A stretch of DNA of 32,000 bases, from NCBI GenBank assembly GCA_963704705.1, contig OY969931.1:60001-92000 (forward strand), in the 5' to 3' direction. Under the pieces are notes generated by a model. It made no database searches and was not told where the DNA came from. It was given only the letters and a program-made list of their open reading frames with translations. Below, piece by piece: positions 1 to 8,437 of the stretch; the stretch's first letter is position 1; every line of letters starts with the position of its first letter. The stretch is from an uncultured bacterium (GTDB lineage: Bacteria; Patescibacteriota; Gracilibacteria; UBA1369; PNNO01). Both the position numbers and the translations under genes were made by a program.

Positions 1-1
1 T

Positions 2-2965
2 CCTCAGAACTCAAATAATTTATCCAAAATAAAAGAAATAACTTACAACGACCAAAGCCTTCCAAATTACAGCGAGTTAAAGTTGTTTGATTCAAAAAAC
101 GATACGACACCTGTTACATCAAGGTCTTATTTTGATGGAAGAGGAAACGTTATTCAGAACAGATCAACTTCAAATACACCTGGAACTTACATTGTTACTG
201 ACAATTCATATGATGCAAAAGGACAGGTTACAAGAGAATCTCTTCCATATTTTACTTCGGGGACAGCTTATCAAAGCGTTAATTTGGCAAAACCAGCAAA
301 TTTATATACATATGACGTTTTGGGAAGAATCAAGCAAGTGTCAAATGCGCTCGGCACAACATCAACTGATTATAATTTATGGAATTCAACAATTACCGAT
401 CCTTTAAATAATCAAAAAGATTTGATAATGGATGCTTACGGAAGACTTGTTGAGGTACATGAGCACAACGGAGCTGACGAATATATTACTCACTACGAAT
501 ACACTCCACTCGGCCTGCTAAGCAAAATAACTGACCACTATGGTAATTTACGAACATTTACTTATGACGGACTGGGAAGACTTACAATGCAGACAGACTT
601 CCATTTGCCGGCTGATACTTCATACAGCAAATGGTCTTATATTTATGACCAAAATTCAAATTTGCTTACCCAATCTTTCGGCGACGGAAGCAATATAAGA
701 TACTATTATGACCAGCTTAACAGACCACTGAGAGAACATTCTTCAAAAACCGGAAAAGACGAAGTTACATACACTTATGATACAGCACCGTATGGAACAG
801 GTTTACTTGCTTCGATTACAAAAGACGACTGGTCAAATGCTTTTGAATACGACATTAACGGAAATGTAACCAAAGAAACAACTTTAATTAAAGGAGACAG
901 TTATGTAACAAACCGGCTGTTTGATTTACAGGGGAAGATAACAAGACTTATTTCGCCGGACAACAAAATGATCAGATACGCATATAATGATATGGGGCTT
1001 ATTGATAATGTATATTATGGATATTCCATTCTTGCCAATAATTTGGATTATACGCCTTTGGGCCAGATGTCGCATATTGAATTTTCAAACGGTGCAGTAA
1101 CGGATTATGATTATCCGGAGTCTGATTTATTTAGACTAGGTCATATAACAACAACTTTAAATGGCCAGACCATTCAGGATTTGGATTACACATACGATGC
1201 TTTAAACAACCTTACGCATCTTGTTGATAATTCACAGCTGCTTACAACTAAAGTTGCGGATTTTATATATGATGATTTATCAAGACTTACAAGCGCGGTT
1301 GCAACAAAAAATGGGCAGCCGGTTTACAATCAGGCTTATGATTACAATGCCATCGGCAATATTATGAATAAGTCCGATGTCGGCTTATATACTTATGCCG
1401 GAGGGATAGCTTCTTCAGCGCCTTCTGTATATTCAAATCCACACGCTGTGACAGCAGCTGGAGCAGTTAATTATTTATATGACAGGAGAGGTAATGTAAC
1501 CAAAATTAATGATAATTTGACAAGCAAAGAGCTTACATATGATTACAATGATGATCATATAATTTTTAAGAACGGAATTGATGGAGTGAGGTATGGTTAT
1601 GATAATTCAGGCAATAGAGTATGGAAGCAGGAAATTGAATATTTTGCGATTGAGCCTAAAGTTCCTTTGATAACAAATACACTGTTTACGAAAGAAACTA
1701 CTACATGCACTCCGATTTCAGCACCTGTTCGCACAAAAAATACTTTAATAGGTAAAGAATATACTATTCAGTTAAGCTCAAGATATAACTATGACGAAGA
1801 ATGCCGGGCAATAAAAAGTACAGGCACCGAAACTCGCTATGTTGGCGGATTTTATGAAGAAACCCGCGATAAATCAACAACTGTCAAAGGCGGAACAGAC
1901 ATAGTAAAAAGATTAAACATCGACGTCAACGGCATGCAGATCGCCACAATCGAGACAAGGCCAAAAGCTTTTCCGATCGGTTCGGTTGACGTACGCACCT
2001 TCTTCCATCACCGCGACCACCTTGGCAGCGCAAGCATAGATACCTCGGGCGGCAATGTAACAGCCGTTAGCGACTATCTGCCATTCGGAACAACCCTTAA
2101 CGATCAAAACTACGACTCTCTCGGCTACGACAACGCCTATAAATTCACGGGTCAGGAACTCGACGACGAAACCGGCCTGTACTACTACGACGCTCGTTAC
2201 TACGATTCCGACCTGGGAAGGTTTATGGCGGTGGATGGGGCGTATCTGGGAGTGAGCGGGGATAAGGCGATGCTTGTTAATCCGCAGGCCTTAAACAGCT
2301 ACAGTTACGTGCTTAATAATCCGCTAAAGTATGTGGATCCGAGTGGAAATAATTTTGTTGATACATGGAATAGTGGTATGGATATTTTGGAATCTATAGC
2401 TGCAGCAGATGGCCCAGCGCTTTATTTAGATACAGTTGCGGTAGTTTTATCAACAGTAGTTATAGCAGATACTGGAATTGATTATGTTGCAGAAAAGATC
2501 AATGAATCAATAGTACAACCAATATCGAATGCTCATTCTGAAGTTTTATCACAAGCGGAAACAAGTGGAAATGTGGAAAATGGATATGTTACTTTATACA
2601 GAGGTGATGTATCAGGAAAAACTTTTTTTGTATCAAAAGGTTTAGAAAATATCGCAACTTTGGGAGCTGATCTAGTTTTCGGTACAGATTTAAATATGGC
2701 GATTCAAAATCATATAGACTATGTTGATAATAATAAATATTCACCTTTTGTTTCTACAACTTTAAATGAAGCAATTGCGGAAGATTTTGCCAAAGGTCAA
2801 GACGGGAATCAAACTGGCTCAGTTTATACTTTAAAAATACCATCTAATGATATAATGTACCCAGGGAATCCTCAAAATGAAGAAGTATTGATACCAGGAG
2901 TAATAACAAGTGAGAAAATAGTTAATATTAGACCAATATCAGTTAATTTAAATGACAATGATTAA
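2..2965 (+). CDS. RHS/YD-repeat polymorphic toxin, 5'-truncated by the window edge, with a variable C-terminal toxin tip
   Basis: The reading frame is open from nt 2 with no stop before the track's Met at 83, so the gene continues upstream. It has many YD repeats (YDVLGRIKQV, YDGLGRLTMQ, YDQLNRPLRE, YDDLSRLTSA, YDRRGNVTKI). RHS core-end motifs are present: YYDARYYDSDLGRFMAVDG and NNPLKYVDPSGN (DPSGN = nt 2336-2350). About 200 aa of unrelated sequence follow. Confidence 0.9.
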   Translation, partial: PQNSNNLSKIKEITYNDQSLPNYSELKLFDSKNDTTPVTSRSYFDGRGNVIQNRSTSNTPGTYIVTDNSYDAKGQVTRESLPYFTSGTAYQSVNLAKPANLYTYDVLGRIKQVSNALGTTSTDYNLWNSTITDPLNNQKDLIMDAYGRLVEVHEHNGADEYITHYEYTPLGLLSKITDHYGNLRTFTYDGLGRLTMQTDFHLPADTSYSKWSYIYDQNSNLLTQSFGDGSNIRYYYDQLNRPLREHSSKTGKDEVTYTYDTAPYGTGLLASITKDDWSNAFEYDINGNVTKETTLIKGDSYVTNRLFDLQGKITRLISPDNKMIRYAYNDMGLIDNVYYGYSILANNLDYTPLGQMSHIEFSNGAVTDYDYPESDLFRLGHITTTLNGQTIQDLDYTYDALNNLTHLVDNSQLLTTKVADFIYDDLSRLTSAVATKNGQPVYNQAYDYNAIGNIMNKSDVGLYTYAGGIASSAPSVYSNPHAVTAAGAVNYLYDRRGNVTKINDNLTSKELTYDYNDDHIIFKNGIDGVRYGYDNSGNRVWKQEIEYFAIEPKVPLITNTLFTKETTTCTPISAPVRTKNTLIGKEYTIQLSSRYNYDEECRAIKSTGTETRYVGGFYEETRDKSTTVKGGTDIVKRLNIDVNGMQIATIETRPKAFPIGSVDVRTFFHHRDHLGSASIDTSGGNVTAVSDYLPFGTTLNDQNYDSLGYDNAYKFTGQELDDETGLYYYDARYYDSDLGRFMAVDGAYLGVSGDKAMLVNPQALNSYSYVLNNPLKYVDPSGNNFVDTWNSGMDILESIAAADGPALYLDTVAVVLSTVVIADTGIDYVAEKINESIVQPISNAHSEVLSQAETSGNVENGYVTLYRGDVSGKTFFVSKGLENIATLGADLVFGTDLNMAIQNHIDYVDNNKYSPFVSTTLNEAIAEDFAKGQDGNQTGSVYTLKIPSNDIMYPGNPQNEEVLIPGVITSEKIVNIRPISVNLNDND
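1913..2287 (+). repeat. Direct repeat copy 1 (RHS core 3' block inside the full-length gene)
   Basis: Aligns without indels to 3577-3951 at a constant offset of 1664 nt. I count about 12 mismatches by eye over ~375 nt. The near-identical antisense ORFs 1913..2107 and 3577..3771 in the track are by-products of this duplication. Confidence 0.95.
2351..2962 (+). other. C-terminal toxin domain of the RHS protein, ADP-ribosyltransferase-like (R-S-E type pattern)
   Basis: The pattern is TLYRG (Arg codon 2600-2602), then 51 aa on SPFVSTT (S-T-T = 2753-2761), then about 40 aa on PQNEEVLIPG (Q 2873-2875, E-E 2879-2884). Order and spacing match the Arg / STS / [QE]xE triad of C2/C3/VIP2-like ARTs. This is motif recognition only, with no profile search. 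Confidence 0.5.
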
Positions 2966-3512
2966 TATTATTTCCAAAATTACAAATCAATTTGATGTTT
3001 TCAGAATTGATGGCAGAGAAGGCGAAGGGAAGCCTAAAATTCCGGGCAAAATAATAAATGTATTTAAAAATAATATGGGTTTTCAATATTCTTCAATAGA
3101 AGTTTATAAAGATGGCAAAATTTATACAGGAAAAGGAGAATTGACAGACCTTTCTGGCTTAAAAAAACAAATACAAGATGGATGGATAGTCCTAAGATTA
3201 CCCGATAAATGTAAATTAAACATGTATCCATTCGGACAATATGAAATTTCAAGTTCGAATAATTTTATAATGGAAGCAGATTTTATTAAACAAGTTGAAG
3301 ATACAATTAGAATTTTGAATAAAAAACCCACATCTGCTAATATTTGTAGAGATTTATATATTGAATATGTTAATAATCCCTCAGAAGAATTAGAAAATAA
3401 ATTAAAAGTGGCATACTTCAATGTGCCTGAACATAAACGGCAGTTTATTTTAGGCGATATGGACGCAAAAGACGGGCCAATTAAAAAAATTCTTGGACTT
3501 AATAATAGATAA
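2952..3512 (+). CDS. Candidate cognate immunity protein for the ART-like RHS tip (no recognisable family)
   Basis: The 186-aa ORF starts 14 nt before the toxin stop (ATG 2952, toxin TAA 2963-2965). This is the classic translationally coupled toxin-immunity layout. No signal peptide or known domain was recognised. Confidence 0.55.
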   Translation: MTMINIISKITNQFDVFRIDGREGEGKPKIPGKIINVFKNNMGFQYSSIEVYKDGKIYTGKGELTDLSGLKKQIQDGWIVLRLPDKCKLNMYPFGQYEISSSNNFIMEADFIKQVEDTIRILNKKPTSANICRDLYIEYVNNPSEELENKLKVAYFNVPEHKRQFILGDMDAKDGPIKKILGLNNR

Positions 3513-3576
3513 GGCTTAAGTGGTTTTAATAAACCAAATTACCTAGTAAGTTCAAACACTCTCGCTCTTTGTTAAC

Positions 3577-3951
3577 TTAAACATCGCCGTTAACGGCATG
3601 CAGGTTGCCACAATCGAAACAAGGCCAAAAGCTTTTCCGATCGGTTCGGTTGACGTACGCACCTTCTTCCATCACCGCGACCACCTTGGCAGCGCAAGCA
3701 TAGATACCTCGGGCGGCGATGTAACGGCCGTTAGCGACTATCTGCCATTCGGAACAACCCTTAACGATCAAAACTACGACCCTCTGGGCTACGACAACGC
3801 CTATAAATTCACAAGCCAGGAACTCGACGACGAAACCGGCCTGTACTACTACGACGCTCGTTACTACGATTCCGACCTGGGAAGGTTTATGGCGGTGGAT
3901 GGGGCGTATCTGGGAGTGAGCGGGGATAAGGCGATGCTTGTTAATCCGCAG
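3577..3951 (+). repeat. Direct repeat copy 2 (RHS core 3' block heading the orphan cassette)
   Basis: Same alignment as above. Homology starts abruptly at TTAAACATCG (3577), 27 nt after an in-frame TAA (3547-3549), and ends abruptly at AATCCGCAG (3951). Confidence 0.95.
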
Positions 3952-4587
3952 AAATTGAATTCTTATAGTTATGTTTATAATAATCCATTAAAATATACTG
4001 ACCCTTCAGGAAATTGGGGCTTTACAATGACTTGGTCAAATCCTTGGACACTAACTTTGCTAAAAATTCCACTTCCTACTTGGTCTGCACCAACAATGCC
4101 AGTAACTTTGGCGCCTGTATTTGAACCTGTCCCATTAGTTCCGCCTTCAGAACCAGCGAAACCAATACCTTTGGAATCAAGGTTAAATCCGGAATCTACA
4201 ACACCTCCTCCTGGATGGAGCGGAACAAAACCACCGGATGGATGGGATGGATCAAGTCCTCCAGGAGATGGATTTGACAAGAGGGGAGGTGATGACGGCG
4301 GATGGTATAATCCAGATTTACAAGAATCGTGGCGTCCAGATTATACAGAGAACCATAGATTCCATTATGATTATAAAATGAAAAAAGGCGACGGTTACAG
4401 ATATTTCCCAGATTCAGGTACCTGGCAATTAAAAAACGGATGTACAATGGATGTATACAATGATTACATAAATGATATGGAACAATATAATAAAGATATG
4501 CAACAATATCAAAGTGATATGGATAAATATAACCAACAAAAAGAGAAGAATTCAGATAATGAATTTGGTGGTTATATTCAAGGTTAA
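3598..4587 (+). CDS. Orphan rhs-CT cassette: remnant of the RHS core (about 125 aa) fused to a different toxin tip; probably silent until recombined
   Basis: The first ~118 aa are nearly identical to aa ~613-735 of the upstream RHS ORF, including DLGRFMAVDG. The sequence then runs NNPLKYTDPSGN, a Pro-rich linker and a novel ~110-aa C-terminus. The Met at 3598 corresponds to an internal Met of the full-length gene. No Shine-Dalgarno sequence or promoter is evident upstream. Confidence 0.75.
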   Translation: MQVATIETRPKAFPIGSVDVRTFFHHRDHLGSASIDTSGGDVTAVSDYLPFGTTLNDQNYDPLGYDNAYKFTSQELDDETGLYYYDARYYDSDLGRFMAVDGAYLGVSGDKAMLVNPQKLNSYSYVYNNPLKYTDPSGNWGFTMTWSNPWTLTLLKIPLPTWSAPTMPVTLAPVFEPVPLVPPSEPAKPIPLESRLNPESTTPPPGWSGTKPPDGWDGSSPPGDGFDKRGGDDGGWYNPDLQESWRPDYTENHRFHYDYKMKKGDGYRYFPDSGTWQLKNGCTMDVYNDYINDMEQYNKDMQQYQSDMDKYNQQKEKNSDNEFGGYIQG

Positions 4588-4602
4588 TTAACTTTTTTAA
4601 TT

Positions 4603-5250
4603 ATGAAATTTCAAAAAATGCAACTGGATCATAAGGCAATTGAATATATCAAAACAATACTGAAAGAAATGAAAATGGATGTGTTTTTTGATATAAAAAA
4701 TCTCAATGAAGGTTCAGTTTTCACATATTTACCTTTAAATGTTGGAAAAAATTTAGTAAACAAATTTGATCATGGAGGCATTGTTAAAGTGCCCGAAAAG
4801 AAGATTCATGTCGATGGTGGTTATTTTGTTAAAGTTCCTGATAATGCTTTTAAATATTTAGCAGAAGAAATTTATATCTACATCAATAGTGATAAGAATA
4901 ATATTTGCTTTCAAAGATCTGGTTGGTGGAAAAAAGACGATAAATGTGTTAAGGAACAAATAAATAAATTTCCTTTATATTTTTATAATCACTATACATA
5001 TGATTTTTTATTAGAGTCCTATAGTCGTAATAAGATTAGAAATTTTTTAGATATGGATTTTCGACATACATTTGGAGTAATGACAAAAATTAATAAAAAA
5101 ATGAGTTTTTTAACTAAGGACAGGCAAGATATTTCAAAAGAAGATATGCAATTTTTCATAGATCATATTCAGAAGCTTTTTGTGGTTGCCTACGACGGTG
5201 AAGGATTTATTATTTGGGAGAAATCTAAACATATTCCCCCCACTCCATAA
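4603..5250 (+). CDS. Candidate immunity protein for the orphan toxin tip (no recognisable family)
   Basis: The 215-aa ORF starts 15 nt after the orphan toxin stop on the same strand. Its last 26 nt overlap the 3' end of convergent carB. Confidence 0.5.
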   Translation: MKFQKMQLDHKAIEYIKTILKEMKMDVFFDIKNLNEGSVFTYLPLNVGKNLVNKFDHGGIVKVPEKKIHVDGGYFVKVPDNAFKYLAEEIYIYINSDKNNICFQRSGWWKKDDKCVKEQINKFPLYFYNHYTYDFLLESYSRNKIRNFLDMDFRHTFGVMTKINKKMSFLTKDRQDISKEDMQFFIDHIQKLFVVAYDGEGFIIWEKSKHIPPTP

Positions 5251-8200
5251 TCTCCAAATCTTCGAGCTTGTACTTTGCAAATGCTTCTATAAGCATTTTT
5301 GCAACCTGCACATTTGTAAGCAGAGGAATGTTCATGTCGATAGCTGTACGTCTTATAATGTAGCCATCTGTTTGTTCCCGGCGAGTATAGTTTTTTGGGA
5401 TATCTATTACCAAATCGAGTTTTTTCTGCTCGAGATAATCGAGAAGATTTGGGGATTTGCCGGTAGAAACTTTGTGAACAAGCGAGTTTTTAACTCCATT
5501 TTCATTTAAAAATTTGGAAGTTCCTTCTGTAGCAAATAAATTGTAATCAAGATTCTGTAAAATTTTCGCTGATTCCAAAAGTTCAGCTTTATCTTCTATG
5601 CGACCAACAGAAAGCAAAATATTCTTTTTTGGAATTGTGAAACCTACCGAGATCATTGCTTTAAGTAGTGCGGCTTGTAAAGTCTTCCCAAAGCACGCCA
5701 CTTCGCCCGTAGAGGCCATTTCAACTCCAAGTACGGGGTCAGCACCTTTAAGGCGTGAGAAGCTAAACTGAGGGGCTTTAACGCCAACGTAATCAAGGTC
5801 CAGGGTTTTATAGTCGGTGCGGTTTAAATCTTTAGCGTCTCGCATGTTTAACATTGCTTTTGTAGCGATCTCAATAAAGTTGTAACCTGTAACTTTTGAT
5901 GAGAACGGGAAAGAGCGTGAAGCGCGCAGGTTACATTCGATTACTTTTACCTCGTTTGCTTTGGCTAAAAACTGAATGTTAAACGGTCCTGAAATATCGA
6001 GCTCTTTTGCTATTTGTTTGGTTATATTTTTAATACGTCTAATTGTTTCGATGTAGAGTTTTTGAGGAGGCAATACAATTGTAGCGTCACCACTGTGAAC
6101 CCCAGCATGCTCAATGTGTTCTGCGATTGCGTAAATTACCAAACGGCCTTTATATGCAACCGCATCTATTTCAATTTCTTTTGCCCCAATCTCAAACTTG
6201 CTTATAACAACAGGAGCGTCGGGTGAAACGCGGGTTGCTGTTTCTAAGAAATCGATTAAAGATTCCTTATTATGAGCAACCCGCATTGCAGCACCGCTTA
6301 AGACATAAGACGGTCTAACCAACACCGGGTATTTCACCTTCTTTGCAAACCTGATTGCTTCAGGCATGCGATTTAGCTCTTTCCACTGAGGTTGATCAAC
6401 TTTTAGTTTATCAAGCATTTCCGAAAATTTATGGCGGTTTTCCGCTCTGTCGATATTTTTCGGATCAGTGCCGAGCACTTTTACTCCGGCTTCTTTTAAT
6501 TTTGTAGCTATATTATTTGGAATTTGCCCTCCGGCTGAGAGTATCACGCCATCAGGCTTTTCTTTTTCATAAATATCAAGAACCCGTTCAACACTAAGTT
6601 CATCAAAATATAATTTGTCTGATATATCATAATCCGTTGAAACAGTCTCGGGATTGTAATTGATCATGATTGTTTCGTAGCCCTGCTTGCCAACTGTTTG
6701 CAAGGCGGTTACACAGCACCAGTCAAATTCAACACTCGAACCAATTGAGTACGAACCGCTTCCCAGAACAATAACTTTTTTGCGTTTGCTTGGTTTAACA
6801 TCATCTTTGTCACCATGATAAGTCAAATACAGATAATTGGTTTTAGCAGGCCATTCAGCAGCCATTGTATCGATTTGTTTAATCACAGGTTCAATGCCAA
6901 GCTGCTTTCGCAGTTTGCGAATATCATGCTCATTATTTTTTGTTAGATTCGCTATTTGCGCATCTGAAAATCCCTGTTTTTTTGATGTCAATAAAAGTTC
7001 TTTATCTAATTTTCGTTTATTTTTTAGCTTTTCTTCAGTATGAACAATATTCTTCAGCTTTTCCAAAAACCATGGATCAATTCCTGAAAGTTTATTTATC
7101 CTTTTAACTGTCCAGCCTTTTCTTAAAGCTTCAGCAATTGCGATTATTCTTTTTGGAGTTGGGACAGCTATTTCTTTTGCCAGATTTTTGGTTTTAAGCT
7201 CAACATGTTTATTAGCAACAAGTCCATAGAAGCCAACCTGAAGCATTCGTAAACCTTTTTGCATAACCTCTTCAAAGCTTCTTCCAAGAGCCATAATCTC
7301 GCCAACAGACTTCATCTCGCTTGTAATTTCCTGAGAAACTCTTTGAAATTTTTGCAGATCCCATCTCGGAATTTTTAATGCAAGATAATCAAGCGCAGGT
7401 TCAAAACACGCAACCGTGGTTTGGGTAACCGCGTTTTTCAACTCCGGCAGCGTATAGCCAAGAGCAAGTTTTGCTGCGATGTGAGCCAATGGATAGCCAG
7501 TCGCCTTACTTGCCAATGCAGATGATCTCGAAAGTCTGGCATTCACTTCAATCACGCGATAATCTTCGGATTCCGGATCAAGTGCAAACTGAATGTTACA
7601 TTCTCCGATTATTCCAAGGTGCCGAATTGTTTTTATAGATAAATCTCTTAACTTATGATATTCGCTGTTTGTTAAAGTCTGCGATGGAGCAACAACAATA
7701 GATTCGCCTGTATGAATTCCGAGCGGATCAAAATTCTCCATATTACAAACCGTAATACAGTTATCTGCTTTATCGCGAACAACCTCATATTCAACTTCTT
7801 TCCAGCCTTTTAAATTTTCTTCAACTAAAATCTGGGGAGAATATGCAAAAGCTGTTTTTAGCAGAGCTTTTAGTTCCTGTTTGTTATAAGCAAAGCCGCT
7901 GCCTTTTCCGCCAAGAGCAAATGCAGCACGTATTATTAAAGGATAACCAATTTTTTCAGCAGCTTTATACGCCTGATCTTCATTGGTGCAAGCCACACTT
8001 TTTGGCATTTTAACGCCGATTTTTGTAAGTTCTTTATTAAAAAGTTCGCGGTCTTCGGTATTTTGAATTGTTTCAACCGGAGTTCCCAAAACTTTAACAT
8101 TGTGTTTTTTAAGCACTCCGTTTTCAAATAATTCAACCCCGCAGTTCAAGGCTGTTTGTCCGCCAAATGCAAGTAAAATTCCATCAGGATTTTCTTTGGC

Positions 8201-8437
8201 AATCACTTTTTCTACAAAATATGCGTTAACAGGCAAAAAATAAATTTTATCAGCAAGTTCTTTTGAAGTTTGATTTGTAGCAATATTGGGATTAACCAAA
8301 ACCGTTTTAATCTTTTCTTCACGGCATGCTTTTATGGCTTGCGCTCCGGAATAATCAAACTCCCCTGCTTCCCCTATTTTTAGGGCTCCTGATCCAAGGA
8401 CCAAAACTTTTTTTATTTTGTGTGATTTTGTCGGCAT
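5225..8437 (-). CDS. carB: Carbamoyl-phosphate synthase large subunit
   Basis: 1070 aa. The N-terminus is KKVLVLGSGALKIGEAGEFDYSGAQA. Two ATP-grasp halves are present (second: KKVIVLGSGSYSIGSSVEFDWC), followed by a C-terminal MGS-like domain. Length and motifs are canonical. Confidence 0.97.
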   Translation of the reverse strand: MPTKSHKIKKVLVLGSGALKIGEAGEFDYSGAQAIKACREEKIKTVLVNPNIATNQTSKELADKIYFLPVNAYFVEKVIAKENPDGILLAFGGQTALNCGVELFENGVLKKHNVKVLGTPVETIQNTEDRELFNKELTKIGVKMPKSVACTNEDQAYKAAEKIGYPLIIRAAFALGGKGSGFAYNKQELKALLKTAFAYSPQILVEENLKGWKEVEYEVVRDKADNCITVCNMENFDPLGIHTGESIVVAPSQTLTNSEYHKLRDLSIKTIRHLGIIGECNIQFALDPESEDYRVIEVNARLSRSSALASKATGYPLAHIAAKLALGYTLPELKNAVTQTTVACFEPALDYLALKIPRWDLQKFQRVSQEITSEMKSVGEIMALGRSFEEVMQKGLRMLQVGFYGLVANKHVELKTKNLAKEIAVPTPKRIIAIAEALRKGWTVKRINKLSGIDPWFLEKLKNIVHTEEKLKNKRKLDKELLLTSKKQGFSDAQIANLTKNNEHDIRKLRKQLGIEPVIKQIDTMAAEWPAKTNYLYLTYHGDKDDVKPSKRKKVIVLGSGSYSIGSSVEFDWCCVTALQTVGKQGYETIMINYNPETVSTDYDISDKLYFDELSVERVLDIYEKEKPDGVILSAGGQIPNNIATKLKEAGVKVLGTDPKNIDRAENRHKFSEMLDKLKVDQPQWKELNRMPEAIRFAKKVKYPVLVRPSYVLSGAAMRVAHNKESLIDFLETATRVSPDAPVVISKFEIGAKEIEIDAVAYKGRLVIYAIAEHIEHAGVHSGDATIVLPPQKLYIETIRRIKNITKQIAKELDISGPFNIQFLAKANEVKVIECNLRASRSFPFSSKVTGYNFIEIATKAMLNMRDAKDLNRTDYKTLDLDYVGVKAPQFSFSRLKGADPVLGVEMASTGEVACFGKTLQAALLKAMISVGFTIPKKNILLSVGRIEDKAELLESAKILQNLDYNLFATEGTSKFLNENGVKNSLVHKVSTGKSPNLLDYLEQKKLDLVIDIPKNYTRREQTDGYIIRRTAIDMNIPLLTNVQVAKMLIEAFAKYKLEDLEIMEWGEYV

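Follow-up and report, generated by a model that had tools for sequence, protein, structure and literature searches.

The window, as we call the whole stretch of DNA analysed here, comprises 32,000 nucleotides (nts) of an uncultured bacterium (positions 60,001 to 92,000 of contig OY969931.1), and it begins within a large rearrangement hotspot (RHS) gene whose C-terminal tip resembles an ADP-ribosyltransferase (ART). The end of this gene overlaps a small gene encoding a protein of 186 residues, which is made up of the two Pfam domains DUF7638 and DUF7639 and is a candidate immunity protein against the toxin. The host genome is a single contig of 1,374,545 bp with a GC content of 35.5% and a completeness of 99.4%, and it belongs to a phylum with genomes of 0.8-1.4 Mb. 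Since this small-genome phylum has a Candidatus Saccharibacteria metagenome-assembled genome (MAG) among its members, we regard the host as Patescibacteria-like.

The toxin open reading frame (ORF) runs on the forward strand from position 2 to 2965 and is open at its 5′ end in the window. In the genome, the full RHS gene occupies positions 56570-62965 and encodes 2131 residues, with a start about 3.4 kb upstream of the window. The part of the gene from position 1 to 2350 (+), up to the motif DPSGN, encodes the C-terminal two fifths of the RHS shell, as deduced from the ORF list, the extension into the genome and the Pfam match to RHS_repeat (E=2.8e-21 for the part within the window). From the N- to the C-terminus, the protein consists of a Sec-type signal peptide (MNYFKKYSAALLCCTVLFSIVLPGTVFAQD), SpvB, FG-GAP and TcdB_toxin_midN domains, RHS repeats and the core, and the Pfam search of the N-terminal 1300 residues gave E-values of 5.6e-19 for SpvB, 5e-18 for TcdB_toxin_midN and 5e-17 for FG-GAP_3. 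Judged by these domains, the carrier is predicted to be a Sec-exported, TcB/TcC-like RHS shell protein. The same domain order, DPxG core and variable tip are found in TcB/TcC-type RHS cocoon proteins and in WapA-like Sec-dependent RHS toxins, which also have an orphan tip-immunity cassette behind a repeated core block, as is the case in the window. Neither a TcA-like partner nor secretion machinery was seen, although no search was aimed at them.

The core itself contains a GC-rich block (49-54%) at 1913-2332 (+), which was identified by a BLAST comparison of window positions 1-2400 with the host's own genome and by the composition profile. This block of 420 nts is duplicated at 3577-3996 with 93% identity, and the repeat is a recombination handle for an orphan tip that lies downstream. 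The near-identical orphan copy of the core (93% identity) matches the TIGR03696 family Rhs_assc_core with an E-value of 1.2e-19. The DPSGN motif at 2336-2350 (+) is an Rhs core-end motif of the DPxG type, after which the variable tip begins. The locus thus has the repeats, the DPxG-type core end, the variable tip and the small downstream ORF of an Rhs/YD-repeat polymorphic toxin, and the proposal that the tip is carried by an RHS polymorphic toxin was borne out by the Pfam matches, the core motif and the gene layout.

The tip comprises the 204 C-terminal residues after DPSGN, none of which is a cysteine. It starts with a pre-toxin linker (2351-2575, +), which was delimited from the sequences and from the alignment of tip relatives and which contains the hydrophobic, helix-like stretch ALYLDTVAVVLSTVVIADTGI. 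A hydrophobic, transmembrane-like segment between the DPxG motif and the ART domain is also present in the metagenome contig L003 (794-940) and in the proteins P0002, P0005, P0011 and P0012, and the tip relatives that share it come from unrelated lineages; this segment may be a membrane-translocation element. The linker is followed by the ADP-ribosyltransferase-like toxin domain (2576-2962, +, about 130 residues), defined by Pfam, PDB and hhalign matches and by conservation. In this domain, the arginine of LYRG (part of LYRGD) is encoded by AGA at 2600-2602, a conserved histidine lies at 2711-2713, the S-T-T of SPFVSTT lies at 2753-2761, 51 residues past the arginine, and the Q-N-E-E of PQNEEVLIPG is found at 2873-2884, about 40 residues past S-T-T. 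The toxin gene ends with a TAA stop codon at 2963-2965. The DPSGN motif, the hydrophobic stretch, the LYRG arginine, SPFVSTT and PQNEEVLIPG were all read from the sequence at the positions and with the spacing given by the original prediction, which had been made from the same DNA.

We examined the homology of the tip with an exhaustive phmmer search (E<=1e-3), which covered 1.84 billion representative proteins and yielded 10 relatives. Four of them have an Rhs-core or DPxG-type sequence before the domain, another has a Hint-like module there, and the remaining ones are short fragments. In the resulting alignment of 11 sequences, Y-R-G, the histidine, S-P and the catalytic glutamate are invariant or nearly so. 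As a single sequence, the tip matched the Pfam Scabin-like family with E=1.4e-3 (E=5.6e-4 for the trimmed domain; 19-20 bits in all, below the cut-off of 27) and TreX in the PDB (8s2m_B) with E=0.018, with YRGD, FVSTT and the glutamate aligned. The profile of the 11 sequences matched TreX with E=1.6e-7 and an uncharacterised NMR structure (2kxi_A) with E=1.9e-6. In a hhalign comparison, the tip profile also matched three Streptomyces Scabin-like proteins, all of which exceed the Pfam Scabin-like threshold, with a probability of 92.8% (E=4e-7), and the R, S-T-T and E residues fell into identical columns. The tip's LYRGD aligns with YRGD of TreX and LYRAD of the Scabin-like proteins, and its SPFVSTT with SDFVSTT and SPYVSTT, respectively.

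Because of the profile match to TreX and the hhalign match to the Scabin-like proteins, the motif pattern of the tip goes beyond chance, and its homology to the TreX/Scabin branch of the R-S-E ADP-ribosyltransferases is well supported at the sequence level. This homology is to the superfamily and does not make the tip a member of a curated family; the tip would form a distinct, rare subfamily of this branch. The original prediction had read the tip as an R-S-E ART of the kind found in the C2, C3, VIP2 and iota toxins; the first part of this reading holds at the profile level, but the nearest proteins are TreX and the Scabin/pierisin group. A C2/C3/VIP2/iota-type assignment was rejected, as there was no such Pfam match (no ADPrib_exo_Tox). 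Among the 301 genomes of the phylum that were sampled, the host genome alone yielded the tip. Word-based homologue searches found almost nothing for either the tip or the 186-residue protein, and a search with a 3-sequence alignment of the tip found one metagenome locus and no genome locus. The nearest toxin relative lies on the metagenome contig L003 (359-4227), where a short Rhs core fragment bearing a signal peptide is fused to the ART tip (342 residues); after this fusion come two small ORFs and a further RHS gene, which is full-size and of the SpvB/FG-GAP type, an organisation like that of the window.

The tip differs from the classical pattern in its ADP-ribosylating turn-turn (ARTT) motif, which reads N-E-E (N-x-E) and not [QE]-x-E when the alignment is anchored on the conserved E-[VFY]-L-[IV]-P. 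Most relatives of the tip have E-R-E, E-G-E, E-Q-E, E-Y-E or E-H-E at this position, and the three closest (P0002, P0003 and L003) have N-G-E or N-E-E. Because N-E-E aligns with the E-x-E of the relatives, the second glutamate (2882-2884) is taken as the catalytic one, and the first position of the motif is the asparagine at 2876-2878. Of the E-E motif claimed previously, the catalytic glutamate is therefore present, but the family alignment turns the motif into N-x-E. Two near-identical Scabin-like proteins have Q-x-E, and a third Streptomyces protein that exceeds the Pfam Scabin-like threshold (L096, 1246-1965) has N-K-E, so that N-x-E extends beyond the tip's own subfamily. In TreX, the transfer to arginine depends on the first glutamate, and the second serves NAD+ (nicotinamide adenine dinucleotide) hydrolysis as well as transfer (PMC11606950). 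With asparagine at the first ARTT position, the acceptor of the tip is probably not a protein arginine modified in the classical E-x-E manner. Our guess would be a nucleobase or a nucleotide, as for Scabin and ScARP.

The gene of the 186-residue protein (2952-3512, +) starts with an ATG at 2952 and overlaps the last codons and the stop codon of the toxin gene by 14 nts, exactly as had been claimed. Both the tip and this gene are very low in GC (27-32%). The protein had been called unclassifiable; this did not hold, as it matches DUF7638 (PF24644, E=4.9e-19, 68.8 bits) and DUF7639 (PF24645, E=3.3e-15, 56.3 bits) in their usual N- to C-terminal order. The Pfam search of the two gene products proposed with the original prediction therefore placed both of these domains above their cut-off (27 each), but gave only the sub-threshold Scabin-like match for the tip. 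A literature search found no paper naming DUF7638 or DUF7639.

The AlphaFold2 model of the 186-residue protein (predicted local distance difference test (pLDDT) score of 82.9, predicted template modelling (pTM) score of 0.79) has an N-terminal beta-sheet and one helix, followed by a C-terminal part of five helices. A Foldseek search with this model gave nothing below E=0.2 in the PDB or BFVD, with a best E-value of 0.8 in the PDB and TriX, the immunity protein of TreX, not listed, and neither phmmer nor a 20-sequence profile found anything below E=0.27 in the PDB. TriX-like, ADP-ribosylhydrolase (ARH), macro and NADAR identities were rejected by Pfam, Foldseek and the PDB profile search, and the statement that the downstream protein is neither an ARH nor a macro domain is confirmed by Pfam.

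Across phyla, the family conserves the polar residues R18, D54-G55, D117, C132 and R163 and the loop G-D-M-D-x-K-D-x-P. The copy in the window keeps R18, D54-G55, D117, C132, R163 and the D169/D171/D174 loop, and it has lost the near-invariant motif I-D-C-W-G, which reads I-Y-T-G-K-G-E. The conserved polar set could represent a fixed functional site, which may belong to an enzyme, bind a ligand or plug the conserved cleft of an ART. With 45% identity, the protein's closest relative is encoded at L014:4134-4700 in a 27%-GC MAG labelled Gammaproteobacteria. It contains two in-frame TAA stops, the neighbouring genes also end in TAA, and this copy is probably a decaying orphan.

We then looked at the DUF7638+DUF7639 module in other genomes. 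Species-representative genomes were searched by a pattern scan, which brought up 147 relatives, and we examined 80 of these loci together with 4 metagenome loci. The hosts are mostly Streptomyces and other Actinomycetota, and further ones are Ktedonobacterales and other Chloroflexota, Nostoc, Pseudoalteromonas, Verrucomicrobiota, Clostridia and a Saccharibacteria MAG. The module makes up the N-terminal half of a larger protein (about 370 residues) in 68 of the 80 loci, and the C-terminal 200 residues or so of this protein are NADAR-like. These DUF7638-DUF7639-NADAR fusions occur in Streptomyces, other Actinomycetota and Ktedonobacterales (L022-L093, for example L045:4959-6080 and L026:1880-3004), and all four fusion proteins that were run against Pfam exceed the NADAR threshold. 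In addition, a standalone module in a Verrucomicrobiota MAG (L016:657-2145) is followed, 13 nts downstream, by an ADP-ribosylglycohydrolase gene (PF03747, E=5e-34). Hence, the module is tied to ADP-ribosylation three times, by the ART toxin in the window, by the NADAR fusions and by the ARH neighbour.

NADAR proteins hydrolytically remove the ADP-ribose that ScARP and Scabin attach to guanine and cytidine, and the bacterial NADARs in published work are mostly free-standing (PMC11543638, PMC12945103); for SCO5665, one of those studied, the residue numbering suggests a single domain. Since the published bacterial NADARs are mostly free-standing, the two-part DUF7638-DUF7639-NADAR architecture seems not to have been described before. 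Scabin-like genes were present in 3 of 5 Streptomyces genomes, megabases away from the module or on another contig.

The neighbours of the module genes are heterogeneous (GNAT, glyoxalase, APH, DinB_2, AlkZ-like, MFS and integrases). The flanks at L014-L093 are often of a resistance or detoxification type, with GNAT acetyltransferases, glyoxalase/bleomycin-resistance proteins, APH, DinB_2 and an AlkZ-like glycosylase. Seven phage-type integrases adjoin module genes, which hints at variable or mobile regions. A protein of Paraflavitalea (L063:1145-2173) has the module in another arrangement, in which two copies of DUF7638 are followed by one DUF7639, behind an N-terminal signal-like sequence.

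Tre1, TreX, Tre23 and RhsP2 are known examples of Rhs-borne ARTs that come with small immunity proteins, and the toxin of the window, though rare and divergent, is for this reason of a known kind. The best solved-structure match of the tip is TreX, which together with TriX forms the TreX-TriX pair of Xenorhabdus bovienii, an Rhs-borne type VI secretion system (T6SS) ART with its immunity protein (PDB 8s2m; PMC11606950). Both tips are Rhs C-terminal, about 130-140 residues long, cysteine-free and of the R-S-E clade, and each has a small non-hydrolase protein encoded directly downstream. TriX is a non-enzymatic immunity protein that occludes the TreX active site (PMC11606950). The two toxins differ in that TreX has E-x-E and ADP-ribosylates FtsZ, whereas the window tip has N-x-E and low similarity to TreX (the single-sequence E-value of 0.018), and in that the carrier of TreX is a T6SS Rhs protein, whereas that of the window is a predicted Sec-exported, TcB/TcC-like protein in a Patescibacteria-type genome.

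The best Pfam family of the tip, though below its gathering threshold, is the Scabin-like family (PF22596) of Scabin and ScARP, which are pierisin-family, guanine- and cytidine-specific ARTs of Streptomyces. The tip shares with this family the motif S-P-[FY]-V-S-T-T and, after the catalytic glutamate, E-V-x-[IF]-P-G. The Scabin clade has a C-terminal disulfide formed by two cysteines, which the TreX-like clade does not have (PMC11606950). This cysteine pair is absent from the tip, which is cysteine-free like the TreX-like clade. Scabin and ScARP are, moreover, small, free secreted proteins with Q-x-E, in contrast to the RHS tip with its N-x-E.

In the Tre1-Tri1 pair of Serratia proteamaculans, Tri1 is both an active-site plug and an ADP-ribosylhydrolase (PMC11606950). 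It provides a conceptual parallel only, for the DUF7638-DUF7639-NADAR fusions and for the pair formed by the L016 module and its ARH neighbour. Tri1 has no homology to the 186-residue protein, which is without a hydrolase domain. In addition, the eraser in the fusions is a NADAR, acting on nucleobase-linked ADP-ribose, whereas that of Tri1 is an ARH, acting on arginine-linked ADP-ribose.

Downstream of the ART pair lies a second cassette, made up of an orphan Rhs core fragment with a different C-terminal tip (a Pro-rich linker and an unclassified domain; 3598-4587, +, from the ORF list and TIGR03696) and an ORF of 215 residues, presumed to be an orphan immunity gene (4603-5250, +, from the ORF list). 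This cassette repeats the layout of the ART pair, with a tip followed by a small ORF. No Pfam family matched the orphan tip, and the 215-residue ORF had no match in Pfam, NCBIfam or PADLOC. The last codons of this ORF overlap the convergent gene carB (5225-8437, minus strand). A scan of positions 2300-5400 for promoters and terminators found nothing exceeding the shuffled background, and the PADLOC defence models gave no match.

We favour a mechanism in which the RHS protein would be exported and its tip released or delivered into a neighbouring cell, where it would use NAD+ to ADP-ribosylate an essential target. The producer would be protected by the 186-residue protein, whose overlapping gene is presumably co-translated with the toxin. 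As TriX and the part of Tri1 that binds its toxin suggest by analogy, the DUF7638+DUF7639 protein would neutralise the toxin by direct stoichiometric binding, and the NADAR fusions would combine such a binder with an eraser of ADP-ribose. Since the host genome (99.4% complete, one contig) yielded no match to a NADAR, ADP-ribosylglycohydrolase or macro domain, the DUF7638+DUF7639 protein would have to protect the cell alone. It is plausible that this protein represents a new, non-hydrolase immunity family for ARTs, a reading that gains indirect support from the fusions to NADAR and from the adjacent ARH. That the locus as a whole encodes an exported RHS ART toxin and its DUF7638+DUF7639 protector, acting in this manner, is in our opinion rather probable.

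Several results weigh against this proposal. No member of the 11-sequence tip family reaches the gathering score of any Pfam ART family, the sub-threshold matches being to DUF7587 (5 of the 11), NarE (2) and Scabin-like (1). The AlphaFold2 model of the tip, made from a 4-row alignment, has a pLDDT of 37.7, and the one feature in it that agrees with an ART fold is that R84 and S135 lie on predicted strands. The Foldseek search for an ART fold, by which the tip was to be checked, gave noise matches with this model, which thus speaks neither for nor against the fold. The N-x-E motif, without the canonical first Glu/Gln, could mean that the transferase activity is altered or that only NAD hydrolysis takes place. 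The 186-residue protein resembles neither TriX nor Tri1 in sequence or fold, and its polar conservation across phyla is no less compatible with an enzyme or a ligand-binding site than with an inhibitor specific to a toxin. No ART-like ORF or recognisable toxin lies within 5 kb of the module in the 80 genome loci or in the 4 metagenome loci, so the pairing was seen once. Finally, the genes downstream of the toxin relatives encode at least two other, mutually unrelated proteins, one of which had no match in the PDB and the other only weak ones (E=0.04 and 0.1).

Even with a real pairing, the DUF7638+DUF7639 protein could be an enzyme, either a new ADP-ribosyl hydrolase or one with another reversing or ADP-ribose-processing activity. 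Near-invariant polar residues that are kept across distant phyla, in standalone as well as in fused proteins, are unusual for immunity proteins co-evolving with variable toxins, the position of most module members far from any toxin fits a general repair or defence enzyme, and the association of the module with two different ADP-ribose hydrolase families agrees with an enzymatic role. However, the 186-residue protein resembles no known hydrolase fold or family, the window copy is without the near-invariant I-D-C-W-G motif, and a module that is itself an enzyme would duplicate the eraser function when fused to NADAR, whereas the pairing of a binder with an eraser, as in Tri1, is more economical. 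We regard an enzymatic protector, the main alternative, as unlikely. An even lower probability is given to the possibility that the tip acts not as a transferase but as an NAD+ glycohydrolase, or as an enzyme altered in some other way, and kills by depleting NAD+, only hydrolysis being left after the first Glu/Gln of the ARTT motif was lost. This would agree with N-x-E in the tip and its three closest relatives, given that in TreX-type enzymes the first glutamate is required for transfer and the second for both activities (PMC11606950), but a protein with N-K-E (L096) exceeds the Scabin-like threshold, which places the variant inside a transferase family. Moreover, Q-x-E enzymes transfer to non-arginine acceptors, and the partners of the module elsewhere are enzymes that remove ADP-ribose from substrates. 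Taken together, killing by NAD+ depletion appears improbable.

The 186-residue gene might also not be the cognate immunity gene at all, being instead a hitch-hiker, an orphan, or a helper or chaperone of the toxin, with protection provided by export or by another gene. The module lies beside no toxin in the 84 other loci, TreX needs the helper protein TrxA (PMC11606950), and the toxin is predicted to be Sec-exported and enclosed in an RHS shell. On the other hand, the two genes lie on one strand with 14 nts of overlap at the toxin stop, as is standard for toxin-immunity pairs, and the second cassette downstream has the same order of tip and small ORF. The very low GC content common to the tip and the gene also argues against an unrelated gene, and the module's ties to NADAR and ARH, which are independent of the window, indicate a place in the biology of ADP-ribosylation. 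We consider a non-cognate gene very improbable, and of these possibilities an exported ART toxin with a DUF7638+DUF7639 protector that binds it is the one we prefer.

The new element of this locus is the immunity gene, which belongs to a two-domain Pfam family without an assigned function or literature, and the window is the only locus found in which DUF7638+DUF7639 occupies the classical toxin-immunity position. The toxin-adjacent position, the prevalent fusion to NADAR and the one adjacency to an ARH gene therefore give this family a concrete and cheap-to-test role against ADP-ribosylating toxins. The N-x-E variant of the tip, for its part, provides a handle on how the first ARTT position determines the choice of acceptor. 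A further implication is that Streptomyces would have a large class of two-part NADAR proteins not described so far, and the locus exemplifies a large polymorphic toxin that is retained by a streamlined genome of 1.37 Mb.

More speculatively, and with more doubt than confidence, we suggest that DUF7638+DUF7639 may be a widespread, unrecognised anti-ADP-ribosyltransferase module, that its fusion to NADAR may be a two-pronged, Tri1-like defence against nucleobase-targeting ARTs, and that the N-x-E tip may be a nucleic-acid- or nucleotide-directed ART. If this is true, the standalone module would neutralise ART toxins of the TreX/Scabin type, as an inhibitor or by a new reversing activity, the tip would serve its host, a Patescibacteria-type bacterium that may be episymbiotic, as a weapon against other bacteria, and the abundant fusion proteins of actinomycetes would be the matching defence on the receiving side.

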